Source: a virus
Lineage: Duplodnaviria; Caudoviricetes
Length of the DNA: 64,000 nt
IMG/VR virus record: IMGVR_UViG_3300029288_000082
Location: 64,001 to 128,000 of that record
Direction: 5' to 3' (one strand)
How positions within the stretch are numbered: position 1 is the stretch's first letter; the number at the start of each line of letters is the position of its first letter. Under the pieces are notes generated by a model. That model was not told the origin of the DNA, ran no database searches, and saw nothing but the letters and a program-made list of their open reading frames with translations. Made by a program: the position numbers and the translations under genes. Of the stretch, positions 5,120-57,635 are shown in pieces.

Positions 5120-5135
5120 GCGCACACGTGTTCGC
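5120..5135. repeat. 16-bp palindromic site, copy 1
   Basis: GCGCACACGTGTTCGC. Confidence 0.9.
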
Positions 5136-5142
5136 GCGCGGA

Positions 5143-5451
5143 TCAGGCGAACTTCTTGGCCACGGCCTCGGCCATGCGGTTGACCTCGTCGGCGTACTTG
5201 CGGAGGGCGGGCACGAGGATGCTGTTGAACAGGTCCGGGGCCGCGCGGGTGGGCAAGCCAATGCGCGAGTAGCCGTCCAGCTTCCGCTTTGCATTCGCGA
5301 ACGCCGGCTGCAGGATCCGCTCCGCCTTGCTCTCCAGGGTATCGTACAGCTGCTTCGGATGCTCGATCATGCGACGCGCCTCGTCCTGCGGGTCCGGCGC
5401 ATCCGGATCGACGGACGTCGCTTCCATCAACTGCTCGATCAGATGTCGCAT
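5143..5451 (-). CDS. Putative internal head protein (leader family)
   Basis: N-terminus MRHLIEQLME-A. Confidence 0.6.
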   Translation of the reverse strand: MRHLIEQLMEATSVDPDAPDPQDEARRMIEHPKQLYDTLESKAERILQPAFANAKRKLDGYSRIGLPTRAAPDLFNSILVPALRKYADEVNRMAEAVAKKFA

Positions 5452-5460
5452 GTGGTCCTC

Positions 5461-5793
5461 CTACGAGCGTCCAAGCGCCATCTTCGCTGCGTCGGTCCCG
5501 GGGGCGCGCAGCCTCTTCCCCACCTGTCTCCAGAGCACCTTCCAGGCCAGGTCCAGGACGGCGTCGGACCGCGGGCTGTCTATGCCTCCAGGAACAAGAG
5601 AAAAGATCTCTCCCTCCATGTCGCCCTCGAACTCCTCCATCGCGTTCTCGATGGCCGCCACCAGCTTGTCCGCGAAGGGGCCCACCAGCCCCACCAGGTC
5701 CTTGGCCAACACGGTGCTGCTCGCCATCCCCTCGACCACGGAGGCGCTACCGTCGCGCATCACGAAGTCGATCTGCTCGATCAGCCGTCTCAC
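5461..5793 (-). CDS. Putative internal head protein (leader family)
   Basis: GTG start overlapping upstream stop; N-terminus MRRLIEQID. Confidence 0.55.
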   Translation of the reverse strand: MRRLIEQIDFVMRDGSASVVEGMASSTVLAKDLVGLVGPFADKLVAAIENAMEEFEGDMEGEIFSLVPGGIDSPRSDAVLDLAWKVLWRQVGKRLRAPGTDAAKMALGRS

Positions 5794-6155
5794 GACGCCA
5801 CCATGCGCACGATCACGGGGTTGGCCGGGGCCACGACGCCCGCGGTGCCCGGGCTGGTCACGCAGGCGAACGACAGGTGCGCGAAGCCCCACCCCTCGGG
5901 GACCACCACGCTGCGGCGCTGGTTGGCCGGCACGCGCACGACCAGCTCGGGCGCCGTCGTGCCCACGGTGGGCGCCGCGCTGTCGTACACCTTCAGGCAC
6001 GCCTGATCAGCCGGGTTGCCCGTGTTGTCCACGTCGATCATGTAGAGGGTGCCCGCGCCGCCGGTCACGTCCGTGTCCGGCGTGACGCCCGCGCCCGTCT
6101 CCACGATCAGCTTGCTCCCCACCGGGGAGACCTGAGTCGAAACCGAAAGTGCCAT
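5790..6155 (-). CDS. Small beta-rich putative virion protein
   Basis: 121 aa, T/V/G/A-rich; directly downstream of promoter P2. Confidence 0.55.
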   Translation of the reverse strand: MALSVSTQVSPVGSKLIVETGAGVTPDTDVTGGAGTLYMIDVDNTGNPADQACLKVYDSAAPTVGTTAPELVVRVPANQRRSVVVPEGWGFAHLSFACVTSPGTAGVVAPANPVIVRMVAS

Positions 6156-6176
6156 TTTTCAATCCTTCTCGCACCC

Positions 6177-6206
6177 ACATTATCATATGGGTTTGCGTTT
6201 GTCAAC
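6177..6206 (-). promoter_or_regulatory. Sigma70-type promoter P2
   Basis: GTTGACAAACGC; TTGACA-17 nt-TAATGT. Confidence 0.7.
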
Positions 6207-6837
6207 CATCCTGGCGCCACATGACGGCCTCGACGTCCAGGGTGGCGGGGACCCAGACCTCCCAGCGGGCGCTCGCCCAGGTGGTGCCGCGGGCCTCCTC
6301 GACCCAGGGCGCCCCCAGGGCCATCCGCGCCACCTCCGCGCCCCCCAGCCGCCACGCGCCGCGGTGGCCCCAGCCCACCAGCCGCCACAGGAAGTCCTCG
6401 GGGGTCAGCAGCCGCGTGAACGCGCTCCGCACCCGCTCCGCCCGCTCCTCGCCAACGGCCCGCAGCGCGGCCCCCAGGGCGAACCGCGCGCCGTCGTCGC
6501 AGGGGCTCGGGGCCGCCTGCGCCATGAACATCTCCGTCACCGCGCCGTCCACGCTCACGCCCGCGCCCCCGGCCCGGCTGGGGTGCACGTCGAACCGCGC
6601 CTCGCAGCGCACGCTGCCGTCCGCCTGGGGCGCCTGGCTGATGCGCTGGAGCACGCACGCCTCGGCGTCCCCCAGGGTCACCCGCAGCGGCGGCGGCCCG
6701 TCCGCCCAGCGCTCCCCATTGGGCAGCACGCCCTCGCGCAGCAGCCGGAGCGCCGCGCGGTAGGCCGGCGTCTCCACGAGGTCGGGCGTGCCGACCACCC
6801 GGAGCGCTGCCTCGCCCAACCGCCGAAGTCGTCCCAC
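6202..6837 (-). CDS. Hypothetical protein
   Basis: 211-aa ORF filling the gap between neighbours. Confidence 0.55.
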   Translation of the reverse strand: MGRLRRLGEAALRVVGTPDLVETPAYRAALRLLREGVLPNGERWADGPPPLRVTLGDAEACVLQRISQAPQADGSVRCEARFDVHPSRAGGAGVSVDGAVTEMFMAQAAPSPCDDGARFALGAALRAVGEERAERVRSAFTRLLTPEDFLWRLVGWGHRGAWRLGGAEVARMALGAPWVEEARGTTWASARWEVWVPATLDVEAVMWRQDG

Positions 6838-6839
6838 GG

Positions 6840-7481
6840 CTACGCCTCCCCTTCCAGCATGGCCAGCAGGCGTCCCATAGATCCCGCGTTGCTCTCCGCC
6901 ACGTTCTTGCCCGCCGTGCTGATGCTCAGCGCGCCGCTCTTGGATCGCTTCAGCAACCCACGCCGCACCAGCGCGTCCACCTCCGCAGGCTGCACGCGCT
7001 CGTGATCGAACACCTCCTTGCGCGCCGACGAGATGAGGCTCCGGATCGTGCGCAGGATCATCTGCTCCCGGGGCGTCACCTCAGCGCCGGCCGGCAGCAG
7101 CGGCGCCAGGGCGTCCGGGTGCACGTAGACCGTGGCCATGGTCCGCGGGTGGCCCTGCGTGCCGACGACGATGGCGCCCCCAGGCGGGATGCGCACCGGC
7201 TTGTTGGCGAAGTCGATCTCCTGCGGGTCGTCCGGCCGCGCGCCCCCCCATCCGCCCCCGAGGTCGCGCGCGCGCCCGCTGGCGAGGTCCACCACCAGCA
7301 CGAACCCCTTCTGGCCCTCCCCCGCGTAGGGGTTGGGCACCACGCTCTCCTGCGGCACCACCGCGATGTCCGCCGCGCGGTACTCCACGCGCTTCAGCGC
7401 CGCCCGCAGGCTCGCTGGCAGATCACGCAGGGGCAGGTGTACCTGCCGCGCTTCCGTCATCCGCTGTAGCAAGTCCCGCAT
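6840..7481 (-). CDS. Putative internal head protein (leader family), possible C-terminal winged helix
   Basis: N-terminus MRDLLQRMTE-A; C-terminus LVRRGLLKRSKSGALSISTAG. Confidence 0.6.
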   Translation of the reverse strand: MRDLLQRMTEARQVHLPLRDLPASLRAALKRVEYRAADIAVVPQESVVPNPYAGEGQKGFVLVVDLASGRARDLGGGWGGARPDDPQEIDFANKPVRIPPGGAIVVGTQGHPRTMATVYVHPDALAPLLPAGAEVTPREQMILRTIRSLISSARKEVFDHERVQPAEVDALVRRGLLKRSKSGALSISTAGKNVAESNAGSMGRLLAMLEGEA

Positions 7482-7503
7482 GTCCGATCTCGCCTCCGTG
7501 CTG

Positions 7504-7519
7504 GCGAACACGTGTTCGC
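7504..7519. repeat. 16-bp palindromic site, copy 2
   Basis: GCGAACACGTGTTCGC, perfect, abutting a stop codon. Confidence 0.9.
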
Positions 7520-8007: not shown

Positions 8008-8020
8008 GGTACAACCTACC

Positions 8021-8305
8021 TCATTCGAAGGGCGCCCCATGGTCGAATTCCTTGGACCACACCTTCTCCGCGAAGACTGGGAGCGCCTTGCAGGCAAACA
8101 TCAGGTGCTCCTGGAGCGCGTCCAGCTCCTTCTCCGGCAGATCGGCCTCCACGATCCGGTCGATCAGGTCCCGCACCTGCCCCTCGATCTCGGCCCGCAG
8201 GTCGCGGACCGCCTTGGCCAGCGTGCGGAAGTTGTCGCGCCCCTCCGCCAGCGCCCCGGGGCGCCCGGTCACGGCCTCGTTGAGTTGATCGACCAGGTGT
8301 CGCAT
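8021..8305 (-). CDS. Putative internal head protein (leader family)
   Basis: N-terminus MRHLVDQLNE-A, GGAGGAG RBS. Confidence 0.6.
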   Translation of the reverse strand: MRHLVDQLNEAVTGRPGALAEGRDNFRTLAKAVRDLRAEIEGQVRDLIDRIVEADLPEKELDALQEHLMFACKALPVFAEKVWSKEFDHGAPFE

Positions 8306-8307
8306 CG

Positions 8308-12193: not shown

Positions 12194-12199
12194 CCCCTC

Positions 12200-15064
12200 C
12201 TACTTCGACAACACCAGCGCACAGGCGTCATCCGCCTTGCTCTCCGCCGCCTTCAACTTCTCACCCATCGTGTTGGCCCCGTAGTCCACCGCCGCCGACG
12301 CCGTCCACACGTCCAGCGCCGACGCCAGCGTGGCAATCGGGGGCGTCACCGGGAGAGCCGCGTCCCAGATATCCAAGCCTCCCAGGTTGAGCGCCACGCC
12401 CGCCGGGTAGAACACCGAAGCGTCGTCCCAGTAGAAGTACCGGTCCGTTCCCGTCGCGTCCGTCTGCCCGCTCAACGTGACCGTGATCTTGCCCGTGGCC
12501 GTCGCAGGCGTGAACGTCACCGAAAGCAACTGCCAAGCCGTCGTCTGCGCCGCCGCCGCGTACACCTCCGTCCCCCCGTCGTACTCCACCGTCAGCCGGG
12601 GCATCTCATGCGTCCCCGCCCAGTACGCAGCGTTGTTCAGCTTGCACCAGATGGCGATCACCATCGTCTTGGTCTGGATATTTCCGGTGGGCACATCGAA
12701 CGCCCACTCGAACGTCTCCCCAGCAGTTGTCGGCTCGAACCGCATCGCGCTGCCCCCCGCCGTGTGCACCGTGGTGTCGGCCAGCGCGGCGTTCGTCCGC
12801 TGCGTCTTGCCCAGCGTGTAGATCCGCCGGTCGTCCGTGGCCGTGTCGTCGTAGTCCGCGAACCCGACGCTGAACCCCTCGACCATGTCGGGCACGTTCC
12901 CCTCCGAGAGCGTGAGCGCCCCGGTGGGCGAGTCGAACGTGTAGGAGGGCATGCACCCGCTGTCGAACCCGATGTCCACCGTGTTGGCCGCCTCCGCGCC
13001 GAACTCGCTGTCCACGTCTACCGCGTTCCGCTGCGTGTTGGGGTAGAACACGACGGCGCAGAGGCAGTTGTCGTAGTGGTTCCGGGCGACCTCGATGGGG
13101 TTGATCAGCTGCCCCACGCCGACCGCCCCGCCCGTGCTCGGACTGTCCACGTTCTCGTCCTGGGCGCTCCCCCAGACGTAGTTATCGGTGAACTGCGACT
13201 CCGTGCCGCAGATGCAGAACGCCCCGTAGGCCGCGGTCGCATGGGCCCGCATGTTGTGGGAGTAGTTGCCGGTAAAGGTCTTCCGCAGCGCACCGTCCGT
13301 CCCGGGGTGGTAGCCGTAGATCGCCGCTTCTACGCTGTCGCGCAGCGTGAAGCGCCCCGAGACGTGCCCCAGCTTGTTGAAGGCGGTGGTGCTATGTGTC
13401 GCGTGCCGGTTCCAGCCGTAGTAGCGCTCCACCAGCAGGCCGTCCGGCGGTACGCGCGGGGTGACCAAAAAGTAGCCGTTCGCCGCGCCCGTGACCCACG
13501 ACACCACGTCCCGGATGAGGTACTGGCTTCGACAGGCGGCGTCCAGCGCGGCCAGATGTGGCTGATACGAGAGGCTCCCAGCTGCCCGGAATACAGCGGT
13601 ATCCACGTCCACCCCCTGCAACTGGTAGTTCGCGGCAGTCCACAGGTTGTTATCGACCGTCGCCACTGCGTTCTTGATCTTCACCCCGCAGCGGTCCAGG
13701 CGGATGACCCAGCCGCCCGCGATCCGGTCGTAGTTCGCCACGTTGCCCGTGAGCGTGATGTCCGCCCCGGCAACGCCCTGGACCGTGTACGACGCGTAGG
13801 AGCCCTGTCCCTGCACGTCCTGCTTGGTCATCACCACGGTGTCGCCGTTGACCCAGTCCACCGCGTCGGCAACGAGCAAATGCGCCTGTCCGACCACCGC
13901 ATCGTTGGTCAGCTGCGTCGCCATGTAGCGCGGGATCTGGCCGTAGGCGAACAGGCTGTTCCGCCCCGCCCAGTCGTAGGCGTTACTCGTGCGCTGCGTA
14001 ATGCTGGGGGCCGCCGTCCCGGCCGCCGCCGCGACGAAGTCCAGGATAGCGCGCTCGGCGTAGGGGATGTTCCCCCAGACCAGCGTGTGCGTGCCGTCGC
14101 CGTCCGAGGTCGTGTCGATGGCTGCGCCGCCCGAGGTCGCCGACACCGTGAACGTGTCCGCCGTGGGCGTGCTCTCCACGTAGTAGTAGACCCCCCGCGT
14201 GTCATCAAGCGGCGCCGGTAGCGTGCCCGTCGTCCGGAACGCGATCAGTTGCCCGACCGCCAGCCCGTGGCCAACCTTCGTCACCACGCCGGGGCTCGCG
14301 TGCGAGATGGTACACGTAGACGTCTCCTCGGACCCGATCCGTATCCCGGTGAGCCCACCCAGCACCAGCTTGCCCTTGACCGTCAGCGTGTACGCCGCCG
14401 CCGGGGGATTCTCCCACTCCAGCAGCGCTACCGTGGCGATCTCCGGGGCCGCCACGTTCGAGCACACGACGCATGCTATACCGTTCACCGCGTCGCCCGT
14501 CCCCAGGACGGCCCCGAACGACGTGGTGGCGTCCACCGTTACCTTGTCCTTGCAAACCAGTACATCGTCGGCGTTCCAGGACAGCGCGTTGTCGCACCAC
14601 GTCGCGTAGAACGGCGCCGTGCCGTTGCTCGTAGCGAGGTTCCACGTGCCCACGCCCGCACCGTGGCTGATCTCGAACCGCCACTTGCCCGCCGCGACGT
14701 CCACCGCGTAGGGTGCGCCGAACACGCACGGCGTGACGTACTCGCCCCTATACTGGTAGGTGCCGCTCGTGCACGTGCCTGCGATGTCGGTTGTGGACAT
14801 CGTGACCGAGGCGCGGTCCGTCCACACCGCCCCCACCAGCTCCTGGAGCTTCACCACGACCTCGCGGTCGGTCATCGAATTGGTCAGCAGGCCGAGCACC
14901 ACGCCCTGGCAGTTGCCCGCGTTGGCGAACGTCACGGCGATGGTCCGCGTGGTCGTCAGCGCGAGGTTAGTTGTGCCGAACCACGACAGGTTGTGGGCTT
15001 CCACCCGGTAGAAACCGTTGACTGTAGATAGGCTGGTCGGTCCGTTGCTGATGATCACGCTCAT
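12200..15064 (-). CDS. Large tail fibre/spike-like protein
   Basis: 954 aa beta-rich; contains ASPGVVT..HGL..G..YYV...TFTVS module common in phage structural proteins. Confidence 0.65.
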   Translation of the reverse strand: MSVIISNGPTSLSTVNGFYRVEAHNLSWFGTTNLALTTTRTIAVTFANAGNCQGVVLGLLTNSMTDREVVVKLQELVGAVWTDRASVTMSTTDIAGTCTSGTYQYRGEYVTPCVFGAPYAVDVAAGKWRFEISHGAGVGTWNLATSNGTAPFYATWCDNALSWNADDVLVCKDKVTVDATTSFGAVLGTGDAVNGIACVVCSNVAAPEIATVALLEWENPPAAAYTLTVKGKLVLGGLTGIRIGSEETSTCTISHASPGVVTKVGHGLAVGQLIAFRTTGTLPAPLDDTRGVYYYVESTPTADTFTVSATSGGAAIDTTSDGDGTHTLVWGNIPYAERAILDFVAAAAGTAAPSITQRTSNAYDWAGRNSLFAYGQIPRYMATQLTNDAVVGQAHLLVADAVDWVNGDTVVMTKQDVQGQGSYASYTVQGVAGADITLTGNVANYDRIAGGWVIRLDRCGVKIKNAVATVDNNLWTAANYQLQGVDVDTAVFRAAGSLSYQPHLAALDAACRSQYLIRDVVSWVTGAANGYFLVTPRVPPDGLLVERYYGWNRHATHSTTAFNKLGHVSGRFTLRDSVEAAIYGYHPGTDGALRKTFTGNYSHNMRAHATAAYGAFCICGTESQFTDNYVWGSAQDENVDSPSTGGAVGVGQLINPIEVARNHYDNCLCAVVFYPNTQRNAVDVDSEFGAEAANTVDIGFDSGCMPSYTFDSPTGALTLSEGNVPDMVEGFSVGFADYDDTATDDRRIYTLGKTQRTNAALADTTVHTAGGSAMRFEPTTAGETFEWAFDVPTGNIQTKTMVIAIWCKLNNAAYWAGTHEMPRLTVEYDGGTEVYAAAAQTTAWQLLSVTFTPATATGKITVTLSGQTDATGTDRYFYWDDASVFYPAGVALNLGGLDIWDAALPVTPPIATLASALDVWTASAAVDYGANTMGEKLKAAESKADDACALVLSK

Positions 15065-15986: not shown

Positions 15987-16002
15987 GCGAACACGTGTGC
16001 GC
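15987..16002. repeat. 16-bp palindromic site, copy 3
   Basis: GCGAACACGTGTGCGC. Confidence 0.9.
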
Positions 16003-21930: not shown

Positions 21931-21950
21931 CAGCGAACACGTGTTCGCTG
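21931..21950. repeat. Palindromic site, copy 4 (20-bp perfect)
   Basis: CAGCGAACACGTGTTCGCTG directly after a stop codon. Confidence 0.9.
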
Positions 21951-28890: not shown

Positions 28891-29025
28891 ATGAGACGCG
28901 AAAACTTCAAGGTCAACCTGGATCCCGACTTGGCCGCCTGGCTCCGCGCCGAGGCCGCCCGCCGCCGCTGCTCCTTCTCGCAGGTCGTGCGGGAACTCAT
29001 CGCCGCCGCCATGGCCCAAAAATGA
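28891..29025 (+). CDS. Ribbon-helix-helix (CopG-like) protein, 44 aa
   Basis: Manual translation MRRENFKVNLDPDLAAWLRAEAARRRCSFSQVVRELIAAAMAQK; stop overlaps tnpB ATG. Confidence 0.75.
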   Translation: MRRENFKVNLDPDLAAWLRAEAARRRCSFSQVVRELIAAAMAQK

Positions 29026-30218
29026 TCCTGGCCCAGCGCATCCGGCTCGCCCCCAACAACGTCCAGGCGAGCTTCCTGGAGCGCTGCGCCGGTGCGGCCC
29101 GCTTCACCTACAACTGGGGCCTGGCCCGCTGGCAGGAAATCCACGCCGTCGGCGGCACGCCCTCCTGGCGCACCCTCAACGCCGAGATCAACGCCCGGAA
29201 GGACCGCGACCTGGGGTGGCTCCGCGATCTTCCATGGGCCGTCCCCAACACCGCCCTCGCCGACCTCGGGCGCGCCTTCGGCCACTTCTTCCGGCGGGTG
29301 AAGGCCGGCCAGCGCCCCGGCTACCCGCGCTTCAAGGCCAAGAAACGCTGCACCCCCGCCTTCGCCATCGAGGGCCGCGCGATCCACTTCGACGGCCGCC
29401 GCGTGCACCTCCCCAAGCTCGGCTGGGTGCGTACCCGCCAGCCCCCCCGCTTCCCCGGCCGCGTGCTGAGCGCACGCTTCTCGAAACACGCCGGCCACTG
29501 GGACCTCGCTATCCAAGTCGAGATCGACGAAACCCGCTGGACCTACCCCCACCGCTGCGAAACCCAAGCAGCGGTCGGCGTGGACCTCGGCGTGGTCGAC
29601 CTCGCCGTGCTCTCCACCGGCGAACACGTCCCGGCCCCCCGCAGCCTGCGGCACCACGCCGCCCAACTCCGGAGGTTGAACAAGGAACTGTCCCGCCGCA
29701 CCCGCGGCGGCCAGAACTGGCAGAAAACGAAGGCGAAGCTCGGGCTCCTGCACGAGCACATTGCCCACGTGCGGCACGCCGCCACCCACGCGCTGACCGC
29801 CTCCCTCGTCCACCACTTCCGCTGGATCGGCATCGAGGACCTGCACGTCGCCGCGATGATGCGAGGAAGGCTCGCCACCTCCCTCCAGGATGCCGCGATG
29901 GCCGAGGTTCGCCGTCAACTCGCTTACAAGGCGCCCCTCGCCGGGAGCACCGTGGTCGTCGCCGACCGCTTCTACCCGAGCAGCAAGACGTGCGCCACCT
30001 GCGGCGTCATCTACGCCGACCTCGCCCTGAACGAGCGCCGGTGGACCTGCGAAAGCTGCGGGGCCGAGCACGACCGCGACGAGAACGCCGCCGAGAACCT
30101 GTACCAATTGGCCGCCGCCCAGGCGGTGACAGCCTGCCGCCACGAGAGCGCTGGCGCCCTTCGGGACGCGCAACTCTCGCTTGGGCAGGAATCGGGCCAC
30201 GCTGTTAGCTTCGGTTAG
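29022..30218 (+). CDS. tnpB: RNA-guided nuclease TnpB
   Basis: GVDLG, IEDL, DRDENAA RuvC triad; CATC/CESC zinc finger; N-terminal ARFTYNW. Confidence 0.93.
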   Translation: MILAQRIRLAPNNVQASFLERCAGAARFTYNWGLARWQEIHAVGGTPSWRTLNAEINARKDRDLGWLRDLPWAVPNTALADLGRAFGHFFRRVKAGQRPGYPRFKAKKRCTPAFAIEGRAIHFDGRRVHLPKLGWVRTRQPPRFPGRVLSARFSKHAGHWDLAIQVEIDETRWTYPHRCETQAAVGVDLGVVDLAVLSTGEHVPAPRSLRHHAAQLRRLNKELSRRTRGGQNWQKTKAKLGLLHEHIAHVRHAATHALTASLVHHFRWIGIEDLHVAAMMRGRLATSLQDAAMAEVRRQLAYKAPLAGSTVVVADRFYPSSKTCATCGVIYADLALNERRWTCESCGAEHDRDENAAENLYQLAAAQAVTACRHESAGALRDAQLSLGQESGHAVSFG

Positions 30219-30243
30219 CATCGTTTTAGTCCCGAATGGGATG

Positions 30244-30672
30244 TCATCCACCTGCCAGCGGCAGCGTCACCTGCGTCTGCTGGGTCTGCGGCTGTCCCAC
30301 CCTGCGGTACAGCACGTCCACGATGATCGCTGTCTCTACCCCGTCCGCCTTCTCGCTCAGGCGCGAGTCCACGGCCAGCACCTCCGCCTGCGGCACGAAG
30401 GTCTCGATCGCCTGCGTCACCTCGCTGGCGACGCGCGCTTGCAACAGCGGAGTCATGTTGTTGAAGATCAGCCGGTGGATGTTCACCCCCATGTCCGCAT
30501 GCATCAGCCGCTCGTTCGTCCCCGTCAGCATCAGCGCCACGATCGAGCAGAACAGCGCCGCATCCGGGTCCGCCAGCGCCGGGAACCCCTCCTTCCCCAA
30601 CTGGAAGGGGAACGCGAAGGTCTTGACGACCTGCGCATCGGAGACGGGCGGTGGCGCGTTGACCGTCGGCAT
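30244..30672 (-). CDS. Baseplate wedge protein gp25/gpW-like
   Basis: FAFPF, T..NERLM..DMG, AIETFVP pattern. Confidence 0.8.
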   Translation of the reverse strand: MPTVNAPPPVSDAQVVKTFAFPFQLGKEGFPALADPDAALFCSIVALMLTGTNERLMHADMGVNIHRLIFNNMTPLLQARVASEVTQAIETFVPQAEVLAVDSRLSEKADGVETAIIVDVLYRRVGQPQTQQTQVTLPLAGG

Positions 30673-30719: not shown

Positions 30720-30735
30720 GCGAACACGTGTGCGC
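30720..30735. repeat. 16-bp palindromic site, copy 5
   Basis: GCGAACACGTGTGCGC. Confidence 0.9.
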
Positions 30736-32079: not shown

Positions 32080-33456
32080 CTACTCCGGCACCTGTCCCGC
32101 GGGCGTCGTCTTCTTTTCGCCCTCTGGATCTACGCCGCCAGCCCCCTGGCGCATGACGGTCAGGCTCATCTCGTAGCTGCCCGGCCCCCACGTGTGGGTC
32201 GCCTTCTGCACAAGGTAGGGGCCGTTGTAGATCTCGCCGGCCCCCGCGAGGTTGACGTACATGCCCGGGATCACCCAGGGCAAGCCCAGCGACGTGATGA
32301 CGCCCTGCTGCGCTGGGTTCCCAGCCGTTTGCCGCCAATCCGCAACGTTCTGAGCGCGGCTCGCTCCTGCTGCTCCAGGAGGCATGGGCTCACTCGCGTA
32401 AACAGCTGGCGTGCCATCCTGCTTGACGCCGTCTCCGATCAGTTCTCCACCTCCCTCATCTGCGAGGGACAAATCCTGCTGGATCGCCGGCAACGACCCA
32501 GCCGTCGCCACCTGCTGCTCCTCTGGCAGCGCAACCTTCTCCACAACCTTTCCCGTGTCCTGATCGATGTAGGCGATCAGCACACCCTTGCCTGCTTGAT
32601 CATCCCCACCAACCAGCCACGTCGCGCTCGCCCCTCCCCCTTCCGGGGCCCAACTCAGGCACGGGAAGGTGGACGTAGACAAGTCCACGACCCCGCGCAA
32701 GCGAAATGTCGGCCGCGGCAACGTAGACGGATCCGCCTTAGATCCGGTCGCAGCCTGCTTGATGAACCCGAGCGACACCTCCAGCTCAGTAGCAACGTAG
32801 ACCGTGTTGATCCGCGAGCTAGGATCTGTTACGTCCGGCCCGATCCAGTAGGTCAGGTTCATGAGAGCGCAGATCCGCTTGATCGCTTCCCAAGCCGTCA
32901 GCCTCGCATACGCCAGCGGGTGCCACATCGTTTTGAACGATGCGAAGGAGTCCGGGTCATATGACGCAGCAATCTGACACGCATCCAGCGCCCCAGGAGA
33001 AAGCGCGGGCAGCAGACCCATCGCCGCGATGCACTTCTCCAGCATGCTCTTCGGCGACTGGTCCAGCACGACCAGCTCCTTCGAGATTGTGTAGTGCGCC
33101 CCCTCCGCTGTCACCTGCACGGTGATCTGGCCCGACAGGCCGTTCGCGTCCAACGTGAGGCCATCGCCCCCAGCCTTCAGGAATCCCCCGAACCACGGCG
33201 TCCACCAGTCGGGCCGCGATGCGTACCCGATGCGCGCCTGCGCGTGCATGCCAATGGCAAACGGCGTGTCGCTCCCCAGCATCGCGATCGCCTCGTCGTA
33301 CGGCGCATCGAACGTGAGCTGCAAGGTGGCCGTCCGGCCAAACTCGTACAGCATCGCGACGCCCGTCAGGAACGGCGCGCTCGGGGGCGCAAAGATCCAC
33401 TCCCTGCCCGATTTTGGGCTCTTGAACCGAACCTGCGCCACGGGATCGGTGAACAT
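32080..33456 (-). CDS. Baseplate hub protein (gp27/gpD-like)
   Basis: C-terminal G.P...PG..V...G.G..YNG.Y.V....H motif; synteny. Confidence 0.7.
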   Translation of the reverse strand: MFTDPVAQVRFKSPKSGREWIFAPPSAPFLTGVAMLYEFGRTATLQLTFDAPYDEAIAMLGSDTPFAIGMHAQARIGYASRPDWWTPWFGGFLKAGGDGLTLDANGLSGQITVQVTAEGAHYTISKELVVLDQSPKSMLEKCIAAMGLLPALSPGALDACQIAASYDPDSFASFKTMWHPLAYARLTAWEAIKRICALMNLTYWIGPDVTDPSSRINTVYVATELEVSLGFIKQAATGSKADPSTLPRPTFRLRGVVDLSTSTFPCLSWAPEGGGASATWLVGGDDQAGKGVLIAYIDQDTGKVVEKVALPEEQQVATAGSLPAIQQDLSLADEGGGELIGDGVKQDGTPAVYASEPMPPGAAGASRAQNVADWRQTAGNPAQQGVITSLGLPWVIPGMYVNLAGAGEIYNGPYLVQKATHTWGPGSYEMSLTVMRQGAGGVDPEGEKKTTPAGQVPE

Positions 33457-37806: not shown

Positions 37807-37822
37807 GCGAACACGTGTGCGC
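37807..37822. repeat. 16-bp palindromic site, copy 6
   Basis: GCGAACACGTGTGCGC. Confidence 0.9.
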
Positions 37823-38037: not shown

Positions 38038-38870
38038 CTGGGCTGCCCCAGGTTCAAGTCGTCCCGCCACTCATGCTGACACGACGGACACGCAAAGTCT
38101 ACTACCGTGTCCACGTGGCCTTCGTACTGCTCGAAGAGGGCCCGGATCTCGTTGCGGTCCCGCGTGGGGAGCCCCTTCAGGCACGCCATGGCCTCCTTGT
38201 GCTTCCGATCGCGCTCGACGGGCACGCCGTCGATGGCCTCCACGCGCGTCAGCAGCCCCAGCGTCAGCGTGTCCTCCTTGCGCTTGCCCTTCGCGCTCAG
38301 CCACTCCTCGTCCGCCGCGGTCATGACGTGCCAGCGCACCACGCGCCCGGAGGACAGCGTGTGCTCCCACACCCGCTGCGTCCGATCCTGCATCGGCCGG
38401 ATCTCGACCTGCGCGAGGTCCAGCGTGTAGCGCACCTCGTCGCGGCATTCCGGGCTGGGGCACTGCACCTTGACCTCGTACTGGTCGCCCAGTGACACGC
38501 GCCGGATGGCCAGGAGGGCCACCATGCGATCGCTGGCCGTCAGCGCCGCCACCGCTGCGTTGAGCGCCGCCCGATCATCGATGTTGCCAAGCCGGTGCGT
38601 GCAGTTCAGGATGATCTGGTTGAGCCGCTGAAGCACCGGGCCCTTCGCCGTCAGCAGGTCCTCCTCGTACCCCGTCATCTCGCCCACCACCAGCTCGCTG
38701 TGCACGCTCCCCTCCCGGTCCAGGTAGCCGCACGGCAGCTCCACCGTCAGCACGGTGGGGCGGATATCGGACCGATCCCAGTCCTGCTGCACCGCTGCCA
38801 GCTTCTCCTTGGTCGGCACGATCGGCGCCTCCGGCGCCCCCTGCTCGCCCTTCTGATCCTGATCCGTCAT
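38013..38870 (-). CDS. Tail assembly chaperone (gp26-like, two CxxC-type motifs)
   Basis: ELPCG, GYEED, CPSPEC, CPSC, ends SFFFP; upstream of tape measure. Confidence 0.75.
   Translation of the reverse strand: MTDQDQKGEQGAPEAPIVPTKEKLAAVQQDWDRSDIRPTVLTVELPCGYLDREGSVHSELVVGEMTGYEEDLLTAKGPVLQRLNQIILNCTHRLGNIDDRAALNAAVAALTASDRMVALLAIRRVSLGDQYEVKVQCPSPECRDEVRYTLDLAQVEIRPMQDRTQRVWEHTLSSGRVVRWHVMTAADEEWLSAKGKRKEDTLTLGLLTRVEAIDGVPVERDRKHKEAMACLKGLPTRDRNEIRALFEQYEGHVDTVVDFACPSCQHEWRDDLNLGQPSFFFPSAP
38031..38037 (-). other. Programmed -1 frameshift heptamer T TTT TTC
   Basis: In-frame X XXY YYZ heptamer just before the chaperone stop; downstream ORF is in the -1 frame. Confidence 0.75.
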
Positions 38871-39061
38871 TGCTCTTGCACCTTTCTATGTGCCCGCTGC
38901 GCATCCAGCGACAGCAGCTCTGCTTCGGCGCGGCGCTCCTGCCGCACCCAGCCGACGATCAACTCGCGCACCACGTCCGAGAGCGACCGCCCCAGGCGAT
39001 CCGCGCGATCCCGGAACTCCACCAGCACGTCCTCTTGGATTTCCATATTGAGCCTCGACAT
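38867..39061 (-). CDS. Ribbon-helix-helix DNA-binding protein
   Basis: MSRLNMEIQEDVLVEFRDRADRLGRSLSDVVRELI; GGAGG RBS. Confidence 0.75.
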   Translation of the reverse strand: MSRLNMEIQEDVLVEFRDRADRLGRSLSDVVRELIVGWVRQERRAEAELLSLDAQRAHRKVQEQ

Positions 39062-39138
39062 GCTACCTCCTGCGCACAGTCTACGCATGATCTGCGCACG
39101 CGGTCAACCATCCGGCCCCAAAAAAGTGCAGGCATAGG

Positions 39139-39170
39139 GTTGACAAACGCAATGGAGGCATTATTATAGT
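39139..39170 (+). promoter_or_regulatory. Sigma70-type promoter P3
   Basis: GTTGACAAACGC; TATTAT at 16 nt or TATAGT at 19 nt spacing. Confidence 0.7.
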
Positions 39171-39215
39171 CCCAAGATGCCGGGCGCTAAGCCCAGGCCA
39201 ACCGAGGAGGATCCA

Positions 39216-39353
39216 ATGAAGATCGAACGCATCCGACGCCGGGTCATGCAGATCACCTACGACGGCCGCTCCCCGGAGATGGAGGCCCGGGCCAGCGCGC
39301 TCGCGCTCGCGCTGGGCGCGCGCGGCTACACCGTGACGCTGGTGAAAGCGTAG
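39216..39353 (+). CDS. Small hypothetical protein, 45 aa
   Basis: GAGGAGG RBS; MKIERIRRRVMQITYDG... Confidence 0.6.
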   Translation: MKIERIRRRVMQITYDGRSPEMEARASALALALGARGYTVTLVKA

Positions 39354-39363
39354 GGAACTGGAC

Positions 39364-39379
39364 GCGCACACGTGTGCGC
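39364..39379. repeat. 16-bp palindromic site, copy 7
   Basis: GCGCACACGTGTGCGC, perfect. Confidence 0.9.
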
Positions 39380-39430
39380 ATGATCGTGCCCACAACGGTG
39401 CCACGCACCGTTCAACCAGGAGGAGAAGCC

Positions 39431-40219
39431 ATGAACGAGACCGAGACCCCCAAGACGATCGACGGGCTGATCGTGGAGCTGCAGGAGGCCGAGGAGCGCC
39501 GCGACGACGCCCTGGCCGACTACGGCCGCGTGCTCCAGGAGAAGCTGGCGCTGGAGGCGACCTGCGAGACCCTGCAGGTGCTCGTGGCCTCCGCCGAGGG
39601 GGCCGCCACGGGGTACAAGGCCGCGGTCGCCGACCTCGCGGCCCGGCTCCAGCTGGCCGAGGCCGAGCGCGACGCGCGCGCCCTGGACGAGGAGTGGCGG
39701 GCCAAGCGCATCGAGATCCAGAAGCTCCGCGACAAGTGCGAGCAGATGCGCAAGAACCTGATCGCCGTGGACGCCCGGGCGGACGAGCGGTACGAGGCGC
39801 GCGTCGTCGAGATCTGCGCCGAGCGCGACCGGGCCATCGCCGCCGCCCAGGCCGACGCAGCTGCCCAGATCGCCACCGCGGAGGCCGGCGTCGCGGAGCG
39901 CATCGCCACGATCCGGGCCGAGGCCGCCCAGACCATCACCGAGCGCTGCGCCCAGTCCGATGCCGCCGCGCGGCTGGCCACGGTCGCGCACGGGGAGGCC
40001 GACGCCCGGGCCGCCGCCGCCACGCAGCGGGCCGAGATCGCGGAGCGCAACCTGGCCATGGTCCGCCAGGCCAACGTCCACCGGGTCGATGCCCTTCGGG
40101 ACGCGGTGGCCCTGACGTTCGCCTGGGAGCGGCGCGACACGCGAAAGGTCAAGTCGGCGGACGACCTGATGCAGCAGCTCCAGAAGACGCTGTACCAGGC
40201 GATCGCCGTGGCGCGGTAG
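39431..40219 (+). CDS. Long coiled-coil protein
   Basis: AGGAGGAG RBS; A/E/R-rich helical sequence. Confidence 0.75.
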   Translation: MNETETPKTIDGLIVELQEAEERRDDALADYGRVLQEKLALEATCETLQVLVASAEGAATGYKAAVADLAARLQLAEAERDARALDEEWRAKRIEIQKLRDKCEQMRKNLIAVDARADERYEARVVEICAERDRAIAAAQADAAAQIATAEAGVAERIATIRAEAAQTITERCAQSDAAARLATVAHGEADARAAAATQRAEIAERNLAMVRQANVHRVDALRDAVALTFAWERRDTRKVKSADDLMQQLQKTLYQAIAVAR

Positions 40220-40290
40220 GTGCGGAGGATCCCCCCTCCCCCTGGGCAGAACCTGCGAGGTCCGGCATGGCCGGGCGAAGGAGAAGAAAG

Positions 40291-40512
40291 ATGGACCGCA
40301 GCGACTTGGGAACCGACACGACCCTGGTGATCAACCTCGACGCCGAGATCTGGGCGGCCTGCCCCGACGAGCCCCTCAGCGCGGCCCCCCCGCTGCGCCT
40401 GGCGCCCGACCTGCGCTGGCGCGACCTCTACGACGAGGACGAGCCGGGATGCCTGTTCGACCGCTACCCGCGCACCGGCCGGGCCCGCAGCCGCCGGCGG
40501 CACGCCGCGTAA
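40291..40512 (+). CDS. Small hypothetical protein
   Basis: AAGGAG RBS; MDRSDLGTD... Confidence 0.55.
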   Translation: MDRSDLGTDTTLVINLDAEIWAACPDEPLSAAPPLRLAPDLRWRDLYDEDEPGCLFDRYPRTGRARSRRRHAA

Positions 40513-44558: not shown

Positions 44559-44574
44559 GCGAACACGTGTTCGC
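44559..44574. repeat. 16-bp palindromic site, copy 8
   Basis: GCGAACACGTGTTCGC, perfect. Confidence 0.9.
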
Positions 44575-51352: not shown

Positions 51353-51817
51353 TCAGAAGTGGCGCCGCCGCTTGCTGCCCCGCCGCTCGCCGTCCTTGTG
51401 ATCCACCGCCTCCGCGCCGGCTTCTTCCACCGGCGCATCAGATCCATGTGCGACCGGCGCCGCAGCAGCTTCCCCCGCCACCACCGCCAGCTCGTGCTCC
51501 GTGAACTCCGGCTTGCCCACCGGCTTCTTGGGGGGCATCTCCTTGGACTTCGTGACGCCCTTCTCCGCGAAGTACCGGGCCAGAGCGGACTTCGGCACCA
51601 CGTCCGCCACCTTCTGGTCGGTGACCGCCACGTTGGTGCGGAGGGGCGCCCCCGCGGGCCGCCCCGTGCGCCGCAGCACGCCCCGGCGCAGGAGAGCCTG
51701 CGCCGCAGGCGTCATATCCACGATCTCCACCTTGGTGTGCGGCGCCACAGCCACGGACTTGGTGCGGCTCACTGGGATCCCTGTCGGAACGCTACCGGAG
51801 TAGTAGTACCAGCTCAT
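51353..51817 (-). CDS. Hypothetical protein
   Basis: 154-aa ORF upstream of sheath. Confidence 0.6.
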   Translation of the reverse strand: MSWYYYSGSVPTGIPVSRTKSVAVAPHTKVEIVDMTPAAQALLRRGVLRRTGRPAGAPLRTNVAVTDQKVADVVPKSALARYFAEKGVTKSKEMPPKKPVGKPEFTEHELAVVAGEAAAAPVAHGSDAPVEEAGAEAVDHKDGERRGSKRRRHF

Positions 51818-51909
51818 GCAGTCCTGCTATCTTTCTGGCGCGCAACGGTGCGCACCGGCGTCGAGGTTTTCAGGCCACCTCGCTGGCATTGCAAACTCAA
51901 AAGTTGCAC

Positions 51910-51925
51910 GCGCACACGTGTGCGC
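51910..51925. repeat. 16-bp palindromic site, copy 9
   Basis: GCGCACACGTGTGCGC, perfect. Confidence 0.9.
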
Positions 51926-51989
51926 GCCAGCGCTCCCCTCTCCACAGGCGTCACTTCTCCAATGTCCTCTGGAAGCTGTTGCGGATTCA

Positions 51990-52685
51990 TCATGACGGAC
52001 GGTACCTGGCGTAGGTCACGTCGGACACCACCTGTTGCACGGCCGGCATCTCCACGGGATCGTGAAGGTCGATTTCTGCGCGTACCGTGAAAGAAATGGT
52101 CCATGCCGCTGTCCTGTCTGCGATGTCAGCAAGTTCGGATGTCTCCGACACGCTGATCTCTCCTGCGTCATATTCTCGCACATCGCCTAAGCTGTCAATC
52201 ACCCGGAAGATGAACCAGGGGGGCAGGCAGCGCCGCAACACGTAGTGCAGGATAAGGTGAGCCTCCTGGCGACGCCGCGCCATGACCTGAAGATCGTAGG
52301 CCAGGTCCATCGGGGTGCCCCGCCACTGATTCTCGTAGCGGTCGTAGCCCACCGTCCCATCGGGAAGCGTGATTTTCTGGGCCCCCTTCGCGGGCGCCCG
52401 GGCCACCCACTGGTACCACGGGTGCCGATCAAAGGCCGGGGTCATGGATGTCATCTTGAAGGTGACGCAGGGCAGCACGAACGACTGGTAAGCATCCTCG
52501 GGCTCCAGGTACAGCAGGGGGACCCGATCGTCCAGGTGGGCCAGCTCGGAGCGCACGCCCGGGACCGCCAGCACGTTGACCCCGCGAAGGTCACCGTCCA
52601 CCTCGTAGGTGGCCACCTCCGCGCCCAGCGTCAGCGGCACGCCGGCATCCCAGCTCCGGGCGTTCAGCGTGCCGAGGATGGTCAT
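51990..52685 (-). CDS. Tail terminator / sheath-stabiliser-like protein
   Basis: LPCVTF, P.DL.YDLQV.AR, WTISFTVRAEID; synteny. Confidence 0.6.
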   Translation of the reverse strand: MTILGTLNARSWDAGVPLTLGAEVATYEVDGDLRGVNVLAVPGVRSELAHLDDRVPLLYLEPEDAYQSFVLPCVTFKMTSMTPAFDRHPWYQWVARAPAKGAQKITLPDGTVGYDRYENQWRGTPMDLAYDLQVMARRRQEAHLILHYVLRRCLPPWFIFRVIDSLGDVREYDAGEISVSETSELADIADRTAAWTISFTVRAEIDLHDPVEMPAVQQVVSDVTYARYRPS

Positions 52686-52732: not shown

Positions 52733-52748
52733 GCGAACACGTGTTCGC
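52733..52748. repeat. 16-bp palindromic site, copy 10
   Basis: GCGAACACGTGTTCGC, perfect. Confidence 0.9.
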
Positions 52749-55527: not shown

Positions 55528-55547
55528 GCTTCCTCTTGTTCCTTTGA

Positions 55548-55563
55548 GCGCACACGTGTTCGC
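55548..55563. repeat. 16-bp palindromic site, copy 11
   Basis: GCGCACACGTGTTCGC; 24 bp identical (inverted) to the copy at 15980-16003. Confidence 0.9.
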
Positions 55564-55679
55564 TGGGATCGACGATCTGGCGCTGGGCCTCGCGGGCCTT
55601 CCGCGCCAGCTCGGCCCGGGCATCATCCAGGGCGCGGCACTTGCCGCAGGCCCCGCAAGCGCGCCCGTCGTCCCGCACA

Positions 55680-55913
55680 TCAGCCCTCCTGCTCGAACCG
55701 ATCCGCCTGTTCCCGGAGCGCGCCCGCGATCGTGCGCCGCTCCGACGTGTTCAGCGCCGCCGGGGCCACCGCGCGGAGCACCTGGATCGCATGCACGGCC
55801 ATGCGCGCGGGAGCTTCGCGCGCCCCCGGCTCCGCCAGGATCTGCGCGACATCCTCGGGCCCCACCTCCACCTCCACCTCGTGGTCGATCGTCACCCACC
55901 GGCGCACCTTCAT
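55680..55913 (-). CDS. Hypothetical protein
   Basis: MKVRRWVTIDHEVEV..., GGAGG RBS. Confidence 0.55.
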   Translation of the reverse strand: MKVRRWVTIDHEVEVEVGPEDVAQILAEPGAREAPARMAVHAIQVLRAVAPAALNTSERRTIAGALREQADRFEQEG

Positions 55914-56203
55914 GGAGCCCTCCTTCCTATCCGCGCCCTGTCCGCCTCCGTGACGAGCCGCGCACACTGCCCCGACACGAGGTACCGCATCACCAGCAGA
56001 TCCCGCTGGCGCGCCGACAGCCGCGCCGGGCAGTCCCCCGATCCGCCCACACAGGGGGCCACTGGGTAGAAGCAGTCCGCCCGGGCCTCAGCCAGATCCG
56101 CTGCGCGCGCGTCCCCAGAGGCCAGCGCCGACACGTCCGCGGCCTCGGGGGCACACCCGAGCAGCAGCGCCCCGAAAATCCACGCGATCGTCCGCATCTT
56201 CAT
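55910..56203 (-). CDS. Putative lipoprotein
   Basis: MKMRTIAWIFGALLLG-C lipobox. Confidence 0.65.
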   Translation of the reverse strand: MKMRTIAWIFGALLLGCAPEAADVSALASGDARAADLAEARADCFYPVAPCVGGSGDCPARLSARQRDLLVMRYLVSGQCARLVTEADRARIGRRAP

Positions 56204-56649
56204 CCCTCCTGTAAGTTGGGGTGCGCCAGATCCCCCCATCCTCGGCAATCCGGGCACACCGTGATCGGCCGGTTGCCCCACGCGCTCCCGCCCGGCAGCA
56301 GGTGGTGGCCATCGTCCGGGTAGCCCAGCTCCCCGTGGGCGTCGCAGCGCGAGCACGGGCGCACCTTGCCTTCCCGGCGCAGCAGAGCCTGCGCGGCAGG
56401 CTGGTAGTGCAGCAACTGGATCGCCACCGTGCGCAGCGCCAGGATGCGCTCGGGGGGCACGGGCTCCGGGCAGATCCACTCCCAGCAGCGTGGCGCCTCG
56501 CCATCCAGTACTACGCTGAACACGTAGTTGCCACCCATCAGCACCGCCGAGTCGAACTGGGCGGTGAAGTAGGTGCCGGCCCGAAAGCCATCCCGCAGGA
56601 TCAGATCGGCCGCCTCCGCAGATGTCCCGTGATGCAGTATGTGCATCAC
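56200..56649 (-). CDS. Putative ADP-ribosyltransferase-fold protein with CxxCxxxG zinc finger
   Basis: LHHGT..A..I...GF..GTYFT and WEW...PVPPERI; CSRC/CPDC. Confidence 0.5.
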   Translation of the reverse strand: MMHILHHGTSAEAADLILRDGFRAGTYFTAQFDSAVLMGGNYVFSVVLDGEAPRCWEWICPEPVPPERILALRTVAIQLLHYQPAAQALLRREGKVRPCSRCDAHGELGYPDDGHHLLPGGSAWGNRPITVCPDCRGWGDLAHPNLQEG

Positions 56650-57027
56650 TCACTTCTCCACTGCGAGGGCGACGCTGGCGATGCTGATCGCCTTCTTTTT
56701 TCCCATCGCGTAGTTCCAGTCGGGATCATCGCATGGCGAATCCAGCATTGCCAGGCCCTTGCTCGGCGCGTATCTGTCCACCACTTTCTGATCCATGTCC
56801 GTCCAGGTTGCGACAATATGGTTTAGTGCAGCTGTCAGCCGCTCGACCTTTTCCCGCGTTGTGCTGGCCTTCCCGGCGGTGATGCTGAGATTGTCCTCCA
56901 ACTCGACCACCCGAGCCTTCATCCGCTCGACCTCGGCACGGAGCGAGGCACGTTCCTCGTCCATCCGATCCACCTCGTCTGCGGACATGATGCATTCGCA
57001 CCTGATTGGACTCATTTTTTCGCTCAT
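56650..57027 (-). CDS. Hypothetical coiled-coil protein
   Basis: 125-aa packed ORF. Confidence 0.55.
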   Translation of the reverse strand: MSEKMSPIRCECIMSADEVDRMDEERASLRAEVERMKARVVELEDNLSITAGKASTTREKVERLTAALNHIVATWTDMDQKVVDRYAPSKGLAMLDSPCDDPDWNYAMGKKKAISIASVALAVEK

Positions 57028-57030
57028 CTC

Positions 57031-57246
57031 TCACTCCTTCCCCGCAAAGTCGGCAACACCTTCCGCTGCTATAATTCGCAGCACACCGTACTCGCCCAAC
57101 CCCTCGATGCGCTGCACGATGCATGCGCCACACAGCATCCCCGCGCCAGGTTCCTTGCCCGCGGGCCGGATGCGATCCCACAGCACATCGGGCAGGTCGA
57201 TGTCCACCCGATAGCGATGCCCGCACTCCTGACATGTGCAGCTCAC
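57031..57246 (-). CDS. Small zinc-finger protein
   Basis: CQEC...W...LCGAC. Confidence 0.55.
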   Translation of the reverse strand: MSCTCQECGHRYRVDIDLPDVLWDRIRPAGKEPGAGMLCGACIVQRIEGLGEYGVLRIIAAEGVADFAGKE

Positions 57247-57635
57247 GGTCTATCCTTCCCCGCGAGGGCGGCTCGGACCAGTCGCCCGATGTGCTCGTCG
57301 CTGTACCGGCCGTCGTTGATCTTGGCGGAAAGATCCCCAAGTACCTCGCTCACCGTGCCACGCAGCACCACGTCCAGATCCTCTTTCAGCCGTTCGAGGA
57401 ACTGCTCGGGGCCATCGTCGCTCGACAGCAGATAGTCGATGCGCCGGACGAACACGTGTGCGCAGCGAAGGCACGCCACGCCCTCCCTGAACCGCGCGAG
57501 GACCTCCGCCGGATAGTGGCGCCCCTTGTGATCCCCGTACCGGTTCACCTCCGTCGAGTCGTTCTCCGCGATCACCTGCTCGATCTCGTCGGCGATCAGG
57601 TAGTAAGGCGTGTCGCCAAAGTGGCCCCCGCTCAT
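57243..57635 (-). CDS. Hypothetical phage protein
   Basis: MSGGHF...RIDYLLSSDDG motif. Confidence 0.6.
   Translation of the reverse strand: MSGGHFGDTPYYLIADEIEQVIAENDSTEVNRYGDHKGRHYPAEVLARFREGVACLRCAHVFVRRIDYLLSSDDGPEQFLERLKEDLDVVLRGTVSEVLGDLSAKINDGRYSDEHIGRLVRAALAGKDRP
57448..57463. repeat. 16-bp palindromic site, copy 12 (one mismatch, intragenic)
   Basis: ACGAACACGTGTGCGC. Confidence 0.7.

Follow-up and report, generated by a model that had tools for sequence, protein, structure and literature searches.

A dispersed 16-bp palindrome in an uncultured T4-type phage and its relatives, most likely a DNA site for a phage-encoded symmetric protein

The window analyzed here is a 64,000-nucleotide (nt) stretch of IMG/VR virus record IMGVR_UViG_3300029288_000082, corresponding to bases 64001-128000 of a contig referred to here as C2, and the element under study is a 16-bp palindrome, GCGMACACGTGTKCGC, that is dispersed throughout it. 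C2 is 161,119 bp long, has a G+C content of 66.4%, and belongs to a 3.57-Mb assembly of 205 contigs that averages 60.6% G+C. Using a simple codon-bias caller, which places start codons only approximately, we called 245 genes, 240 of them on the minus strand, with 91.5% of the contig coding and 8.5% non-coding; the same one-strand bias is found in the relatives G001 (282/286 genes) and G002 (240/246). Judged by its gene content, C2 is a distant, uncultured T4-type myovirus, since its proteins gave Pfam and PHROG matches to tail sheath, T4_baseplate, gp19 tube, gp9/10, and GroES and since it also encodes a gp23-like capsid protein, UvsX, and DnaB- and DnaC-like proteins. The sheath and capsid proteins are 25 to 37% identical to those of cultured phages, and a megablast search with 24 kb of the window against a phage collection returned no match. 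The RecA of the assembly reaches at most 74% identity, and does so to many phyla; no CRISPR-spacer-like match was found between C2 and the rest of the assembly. About 28 early promoters of a very uniform, extended form (GTTGACAAACGC-N-TAnnnT, with TAnnnT some 11 to 12 nt after) are confined to 1-61 kb, 69-70 kb, and 122-146 kb of the contig. Those within the window lie at 5073-5101 and at about 6205, 58908, 60551, and 60603. The T4-type late promoter motif TATAAATA was sought across the contig and not found.

A first-pass annotation of the window had described twelve copies of the palindrome. Eleven are exact at the positions given, compared to none in 100 dinucleotide-preserving shuffles of the window, while the twelfth, at 57448, lies inside a gene and reads ACGAACACGTGTGCGC, one mismatch away from the consensus. 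Allowing up to two mismatches still yielded 12 matches in the window, against 0.34 expected. The motif count over the whole contig that the same annotation had proposed gave 39 exact and 3 one-mismatch copies between contig positions 1866 and 159966, or about one every 4 kb, and none on the other 204 contigs (3.4 Mb of assembly), where even the 10-mer core MACACGTGTK occurs only once. The sites are all-or-none: on C2, sequences with 0, 1, 2, and 3 mismatches numbered 39, 3, 2, and 5, compared to 0, 0, 0.8, and 9 in simulated sequence, and isolated half-sites were not enriched. The element is exactly 16 bp long, because the flanks of the 42 sites hold no information. Its variation is limited to position 4, which is A or C, and position 13, which is T or G, and the two are independent of each other (AG 12, CG 10, AT 10, CT 10; n = 42). 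We call a site perfect when its halves match (A..T or C..G) and mixed when it carries one half-site of each A/C-type variant.

Among the window copies the spacing is 0.8 to 8.8 kb and the split is six perfect to six mixed, just as first described; the placement of most of them directly after a stop codon also holds, with the next ribosome-binding site just beyond. Site 1 (5120-5135) is a mixed site, GCGCAC..GTTCGC, 7 nt past a stop codon; on the transcribed minus strand it is followed by a T-run and then by the early promoter at 5073-5101 (minus strand; TTGACA-N17-TAAGCT, of the GTTGACAAACGC family), which begins 18 nt downstream. The perfect A..T site 2 (7504-7519) abuts the upstream stop codon, and the next ATG lies 22 nt beyond its end. 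Site 3 (15987-16002), which is mixed, coincides with the 5' end of a small gene conserved in the clade or lies slightly within it; the start codon of this gene is uncertain. Two sites stand 2 nt past a stop codon and 15 nt ahead of the start of a long gene: site 4 (21933-21948; perfect A..T), before an 815-amino-acid (aa) structural gene, and site 6 (37807-37822; mixed), before the GTG of a 1320-aa gene. The position of site 4 is also occupied in G001, and that of site 6 is kept in contig L032 as well as in G001. Site 5 (30720-30735; mixed), 3 nt past a stop codon and upstream of a 142-aa gene, and site 10 (52733-52748; perfect A..T), 17 nt past a stop codon and 47 nt ahead of a 231-aa gene, occupy positions kept in C2, G001, and G002. 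Site 8 (44559-44574; perfect A..T) lies 6 nt past a stop codon and 19 nt ahead of an ATG, and its orthologue in contig L034 is an exact 16-mer with diverged flanks. The remaining copies are site 7 (39364-39379; perfect C..G), site 9 (51910-51925; perfect C..G), site 11 (55548-55563; mixed), with an ATG 20 nt beyond its end, and site 12 (57448-57463), the copy whose first base is a mismatched A, within a 130-aa gene.

Two of these copies have distinctive surroundings. Site 7 lies between the first two genes of a plus-strand module (window 39216-40509) of three genes (45, 262, and 73 aa) that has its own canonical early promoter and diverges from the ribbon-helix-helix (RHH) gene at 38870-39061; its proteins gave no family matches apart from a weak winged helix-turn-helix (wHTH). 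Site 9 is part of a composite repeat of about 150 nt that surrounds two palindromes, at window 51790-51990 and at L001:13630-13830 (contig position 13750, upstream of the tail-sheath block). This repeat contains conserved blocks, may form a long-range stem (CTGGCGCGCA ... TGCGCGCCAG), and could be a structured RNA or leader; a related hairpin, GCCAGCGAGGTGGCC, is found again a short distance ahead of the tail-sheath gene.

Across the contig, 25 to 30 of the 42 sites fall between genes, in a genome with only 8.5% non-coding sequence (P of about 1e-16 for at least 25). The usual order is a stop codon, 1 to 9 nt, the site, 13 to 22 nt containing a ribosome-binding site, and a start codon. Six sites lie 6 to 24 nt upstream of canonical early promoters, compared to 1.1 expected for random non-coding positions, and four or five lie 46 to 92 nt downstream of a -35 element. 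A terminator-like T-run follows two of the 42 sites (contig 69120, which is window 5120, and contig 141530). The array covers early and structural regions alike and extends into genes, where some sites are in frame and read as E-R-T-R-V-R (for example, at contig 153527, 131237, and 151098), so that the A/C and T/G variants are synonymous third positions. In these in-frame palindromes, selection seems to act on the DNA and not on the peptide, because they use CGA and GTT codons, which are unexpected where third positions are about 85 to 90% G+C, and because one of them is kept at the same place across genomes in which the orthologous protein is only about 40% identical. Spacing is also more even than random in four genomes, with coefficients of variation (CV) of 0.76, 0.63, 0.63, and 0.55 against about 0.95 (P = 0.05, 0.005, 0.018, and 0.0004, respectively).

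The array is conserved beyond C2. IMG/VR contigs that are about 70 to 75% identical in DNA carry the same 16-mer, often at orthologous gaps whose flanks can no longer be aligned. More distant relatives, found by searching with a 913-aa head-region protein (42 to 71% protein identity; 38 to 68% G+C), carry sites of the form (R)CGAAC-N4-GTTCG(Y), with constant arms and four central bases that are essentially fixed per lineage: GCGAAC-ACGT-GTTCGC in this phage and G008; CGCGAAC-CYRG-GTTCGCG in G004, G006, G007, and others; CGAAC-TCCA-GTTCG in G001; and CGAAC-TCAA-GTTCG in G002 and G003. Four short contigs (L154, L155, L160, and L161) have CCGCAC-NCGY-GTGCGG. The complete genomes of G001 (194.9 kb, with terminal repeats) and G002 (176.3 kb) hold 30 and 22 sites, G006 (168.7 kb) holds about 33, and the partial records of G003, G007, G008, and G004 hold 28, 25, 18, and 13; a reversed-pattern control gave 0 to 4 matches in the same records. 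Both G001 and G002 are transcribed one way and follow the same placement rules as C2. Streptomyces phage BRock, which has a weak wHTH match in common, has zero sites.

Five site positions are common to C2, G001, and G002. One of the five is inside a gene (contig 152984-154000), and four are upstream of genes (contig 115990-116685, 11891-12313, 94244-94672, and 39118-39423); at the last of these, the distance from the site to a TTGACAAC element is 22 nt in all three genomes by hand count. The gene that follows this palindrome, spacer, and TTGACAAC arrangement (L002:19121-19501; contig 39118-39501) encodes a helical protein of 96 to 101 aa with an invariant C-terminal NDLGF tail and precedes a KH-domain (KhpA-like) gene. 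The NDLGF tail could be a partner-binding peptide of the kind that T4 gp33 and gp55 use for the sliding clamp. We set this protein aside as a binder of the palindrome, as it looks rather like a small helical factor.

The first-pass annotation had argued that independent assortment of the half-sites favors a dimeric protein bound to double-stranded DNA over an RNA hairpin, and this argument is stronger on 42 sites than on twelve. There is no compensatory covariation between positions 4 and 13. The perfect palindromes are predicted to fold as RNA at -7.2 or -9.4 kcal/mol, whereas the 22 mixed sites reach only -2.7 kcal/mol. In the relatives with asymmetric centers, both orientations relative to transcription are used (TCCA 13 and TGGA 7 in G001; TCAA 11 and TTGA 8 in G002), including at sites that abut ribosome-binding sites (8:6 in G001). 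The sites are real, phage-specific, conserved, symmetric, and orientation-free. As far as sequence comparison can tell, the palindrome is most likely a double-stranded DNA site of a symmetric, phage-encoded protein, because it is two-fold symmetric and free of orientation, and a promoter or RNA operator would differ in this respect. We rejected the palindrome as a promoter on its lack of orientation and its closeness to start codons, and as a set of intrinsic terminators because a T-run is found at 2 of the 42 sites only and 22 of them fold at -2.7 kcal/mol. It is also unlikely that the element acts as RNA, that is, as a 6-bp stem and tetraloop that terminates transcription, marks the transcript for processing or stability, or serves as an operator of translation. 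Such a role would fit the many sites that end 13 to 22 nt ahead of a start codon, the two with T-runs that resemble intrinsic terminators, the invariant arms of the relatives, in which the stem would always form, and the conserved KH-domain protein encoded by the clade. However, the 22 mixed sites carry an uncompensated A.G or C.U mismatch and fold weakly, and in the relatives the loop is read as either complementary sequence, even beside ribosome-binding sites, which excludes a loop-specific RNA binder. Moreover, the identical stem is kept at 40 to 70% protein identity, which a plain stability hairpin would not need, and an Rfam search of the window found no family match.

We then asked which protein might bind. 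Candidates were sought by a bulk scan of the proteome followed by candidate-by-candidate analysis, and this partial Pfam survey found two clade-conserved, sequence-specific DNA-binding candidates, a MerR-like protein and an RHH protein. The MerR-like protein (169 to 180 aa) is encoded outside the window on the minus strand at contig 32331-32873 (locus L002:12334-12873). It has a basic, helical N-terminal half and a C-terminal winged-helix domain of the MerR/RacA type (Pfam MerR_1, E = 7e-8; 32.9 bits against a curated cutoff of 21.6). Its AlphaFold model, with a predicted local distance difference test score of 88, shows three N-terminal helices and then the winged helix. The top Foldseek matches were the MerR-family protein-DNA complexes of HiNmlR, MtaN, RacA (5i44), CueR, and BldC, with probability 1.0 for the first four and best superpositions of 2.5 to 3.1 Å root mean square deviation over about 70 residues, and viral MerR-type proteins were also among the matches. 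According to this model, the protein carries a MerR-type winged helix-turn-helix (HTH) fold. Its homologues form only 27 clusters, all metagenomic, some of them on contigs of 130 to 170 kb, and the gene occurs in all motif-bearing genomes for which sufficient sequence is available (C2, G001 to G004, and G006 to G008). Its orthologues in G001 and G002 are about 51% identical to it, and the residues of the recognition helix and wing do not vary, paralleling the invariant arms of the sites. Its gene sits in a replication block with a DnaC-like loader, a DnaB-like helicase, a superfamily 2 (SF2) helicase, and UvsX. In the helix segment after R-S, the C2 protein alone has N (RSKN), every other aligned homologue having D (RSKD, RSVD, or RSRD). 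The C arm variant is common in C2 (42 of 84 half-sites); one was seen in G008, whose protein keeps D, and contig L134, from which no MerR-like protein was seen, mixes both variants too. The D-to-N change thus appears to track the C arm variant, a single-lineage correlation that is only suggestive. On these comparisons, the MerR-like protein is most likely the best candidate binder of the palindrome, ahead of the RHH protein.

The RHH protein, which had been proposed as a binder from its reading frame at 38867, proved to be clade-conserved and stays a plausible rival. It is a 64-aa, ParG/Arc-like protein encoded at window 38870-39061 on the minus strand, to which the true start adds MSRLN. It matches the PHROG "Arc-like repressor" family (E = 4e-6), and a profile of three orthologues had ParG as its only significant match among solved structures (E = 3.5e-6). 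The gene lies just before the T4_baseplate gene in C2, G001, and G002 and is also present in G006 and G007, with conserved strand residues R-x-N-x-(D/E)-I; the AlphaFold monomer model is all-helical and does not confirm the ribbon. For two other proteins put forward at the same time, the wHTH (58905) and the HTH-repeat protein (60863), the complete relatives G001 and G002 offer no counterpart; the HTH-repeat protein resembles DNA-binding modules associated with homing endonucleases.

We infer both the identity of the bound protein and the effect of its binding as follows. The reading that we favor, and to which we give about an even chance, is that the palindrome is an operator for a phage-encoded protein of two-fold symmetry, likeliest the MerR-like one, and that it punctuates transcription. 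Dimers would occupy about 42 high-affinity sites on a genome transcribed almost wholly one way, where they would stop or insulate transcription running from one gene block into the next and adjust the early promoters close by; stoperators, KorB operators, and the D29 Gp36 repressor would be comparable. A punctuating role is favored because sites are in excess just upstream of early promoters, because they are placed at gene borders, and because the genome is one-directional. Several observations weigh against it. The sites do not lie in promoter spacers, as classical MerR operators do, and have no flanking -35/-10 signal. Where a promoter is near, the distance to it varies from 6 to 39 nt, and most sites are not near any recognizable promoter. 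No site lies over the promoter of either candidate gene, and the clade-conserved, ParG/Arc-like RHH fits about equally well as the binder. The strong preference of the relatives for asymmetric centers (TCAA, TCCA, and CCAG) is not explained by a simple homodimer, and the even spacing is no less compatible with a structural role than with a transcriptional one. We also compared the array with the classical MerR operator, a dyad within a 19- to 20-bp -35/-10 spacer; here the sites lie upstream or downstream of promoters.

An array that organizes the genome is a possibility to be weighed, if a rather doubtful one. Protein-bound sites would then be centromere-like, anchoring, or condensation points for replicating or packaging DNA, with RacA ram sites, ParG/omega centromeres, or KorB/ParB loading sites as the model and transcription not the main target. 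We keep this role alive because of the even spacing in four genomes (CV 0.55 to 0.76 against 0.95) and the folds of the candidates, the MerR-like model matching the RacA-DNA complex 5i44 and the RHH profile matching the partition protein ParG; the equal coverage of early and structural regions also suits it. In contrast, the strong intergenic bias and the excess ahead of promoters point to transcription, and the machinery of partition was not found: profile searches of the contig proteins gave no HTH-bearing ParB or KorB and no ParA/ParF-type ATPase, no plasmid-type maintenance genes were found on C2, and there was no match to Phage_integrase, the one integrase family searched for. The earlier suggestion of a parS/partition system is not borne out for the same reason, as the sole ParB_N match on C2 is the N terminus of a fusion to an N6/N4 methyltransferase. 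A weak CbiA match was considered as a ParA and rejected, the protein being a DnaC/IstB-like helicase loader. If the even sites are bound by a RacA-like and/or ParG-like protein, a virulent T4-like phage could conceivably have a chromosome-organizing or multi-site helicase-loading system, a view that we hold only tentatively. Another reading, which we consider improbable, is that the sites are dispersed entry points for replication or recombination, at which the MerR-like protein marks even points for helicase loading or strand invasion. The even spacing and the neighborhood of the MerR-like gene (DnaC-like loader, DnaB-like helicase, SF2 helicase, and UvsX) would suit this, and the support ends there, no search for precedents having been made; against it, no AT-rich unwinding element lies beside the sites, whose flanks are without information.

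Two further accounts concern the host and the exchange of modules. The arms CGAAC-N4-GTTCG have the shape of what we take to be the Gram-positive (Cheo-type) LexA box, CGAACRNRYGTTYG, a resemblance seen in all of the relatives' sites and in the 10 A..T sites here, so host LexA might bind the phage genome or be titrated by it. We consider this very unlikely. The center is essentially invariant within a lineage and differs between lineages, which a host SOS box would not impose, and half of the arms here are GCAC rather than GAAC. In addition, the upstream regions of the assembly's own lexA and recA are without the box, whose frequency elsewhere in the assembly (3.4 Mb) is that of the background (7 copies, as many as a reversed control gave), although the assembly may not be the host. 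It is equally hard to credit that the sites are PeSL-like recombination cassettes, short repeats at gene borders that serve as points of homologous exchange and shuffle modules. PeSLs belong to T4-type phages, the superfamily of the present phage, and a few sites do form a PeSL-like composite of hairpin, T-run, and early promoter (PMC4122927); six to nine sites precede early promoters, and site positions turn over between relatives. However, junctions between conserved and lineage-specific genes are not enriched for sites (9/31 versus 75/244; odds ratio, 0.91; P = 1.0), and sites also occur in conserved structural blocks and inside genes. Unlike PeSL-type composites, which hold a whole promoter, the present element is a fixed sequence of 14 to 16 bp, few bases by comparison, and is not enriched at indel borders.

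Returning to an operator that punctuates transcription, we compared the array with known multi-site systems. The first-pass annotation had likened the palindrome to parS and its placement to mycobacteriophage stoperators. The CACGTG center is indeed that of parS, but it is all that the element has in common with the parS consensus, TGTTNCACGTGAAACA, and sister lineages replace it with CCAG, TCCA, or TCAA, so that the element is not a parS site. The parS/ParB and KorB systems resemble the array in that dimers bind palindromes of 13 to 16 bp scattered over several locations, and KorB represses globally, from both promoter-proximal and distal sites. The Cluster A stoperators (L5 gp71) share with the array dozens of near-identical sites in short gaps bound by one phage protein, here 42 copies with at least 25 intergenic, and they offer a plausible roadblock model. 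The sites are not stoperators themselves, however: those are asymmetric, oriented with transcription, and silence a prophage (PMC4351075), belonging to temperate phages with an immunity repressor and an integration or partition system, whereas the present sites are symmetric and orientation-free and C2 gave no Phage_integrase match.

RacA of Bacillus subtilis binds a GC-rich 14-bp palindrome (ram) at 25 dispersed chromosomal regions (PMC4914108), and like the MerR-like candidate it combines a MerR-type winged helix with a helical oligomerization region (PDB 5i44). It differs in its opposite domain order and in being a cellular sporulation protein, and the similarity is limited to the fold. D29 Gp36, a small, MerR-like repressor from a lytic phage, acts on genes that lie downstream of the site it binds; it recognizes GC-rich direct repeats, and the abstract describing it mentions no genome-wide array of identical sites (PMC12266134). 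The closest parallel in the literature is a repeat of Cluster O mycobacteriophages, a 17-bp dyad, TGTTCGGNNNCCGAACA, with 34 copies in Corndog and no explained function (PMC4351075). Like the present array, it has more than 30 dispersed copies with invariant inverted arms and an asymmetric center read both ways; many copies are intergenic and about a third lie in coding sequence, in phages that are not obviously temperate (PMC4351075). The array here is a dispersed dyad of this type, a likeness of kind and not of homology. The Cluster O phages are unrelated Mycobacterium siphoviruses with genomes of about 70 kb, their arms are reversed (GTTCGG..CCGAAC) around a 3-nt center, and no binder has been proposed for them, compared to two clade-conserved candidates for the present phage. 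A literature search on the core sequence returned nothing relevant.

Dispersed near-perfect palindromes in lytic phages have been reported before, as in Cluster O, and never explained. Here this kind of array is conserved over a whole clade of 160- to 195-kb T4-like phages, while its sequence drifts lineage by lineage. New in this analysis are the whole-contig and clade counts, the orientation test, the spacing statistic, the tests leading to rejections, and two named candidate binders. Because the array is clade-wide, its sequence drifts between lineages, and the partial survey leaves only two candidates, its function can be tested directly, for which a few purified proteins and short oligonucleotides suffice. 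Should the sites be roadblocks or insulators, they would account for the division of a one-directionally transcribed genome into timed units. If they organize DNA, they would add a new element to the biology of phage chromosomes, and an organizing or helicase-loading system would be a form of phage genome architecture, in a large uncultured clade, for which we found no description.

Several other genes of C2 deserve mention. The ParB_N-N6/N4 DNA methyltransferase fusion (L002:9087-10547; contig 29087-30547) contains ten consecutive Met codons, and its gene is kept in G001 and G002, where a palindrome and a promoter lie ahead of it. A 287-aa protein (L001:439-1299; contig 436-1299) has a sigma-70 region 4 domain (E = 1e-10), is without counterpart in G001 or G002, and may be a sigma-like factor particular to this lineage. 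The window also holds two TnpB (IS605 OrfB/Cas12f-like) genes, one within 28891-30215 on the plus strand and the other at 59369-60538 on the minus strand; among the C2 proteins, bulk scanning with Pfam counted three matches to the Cas12f1-like TNB domain. The plus strand is otherwise nearly empty, and there a gene for a 44-aa, FitA-like RHH protein (28891) precedes the first TnpB; this RHH protein is presumably part of a mobile element.

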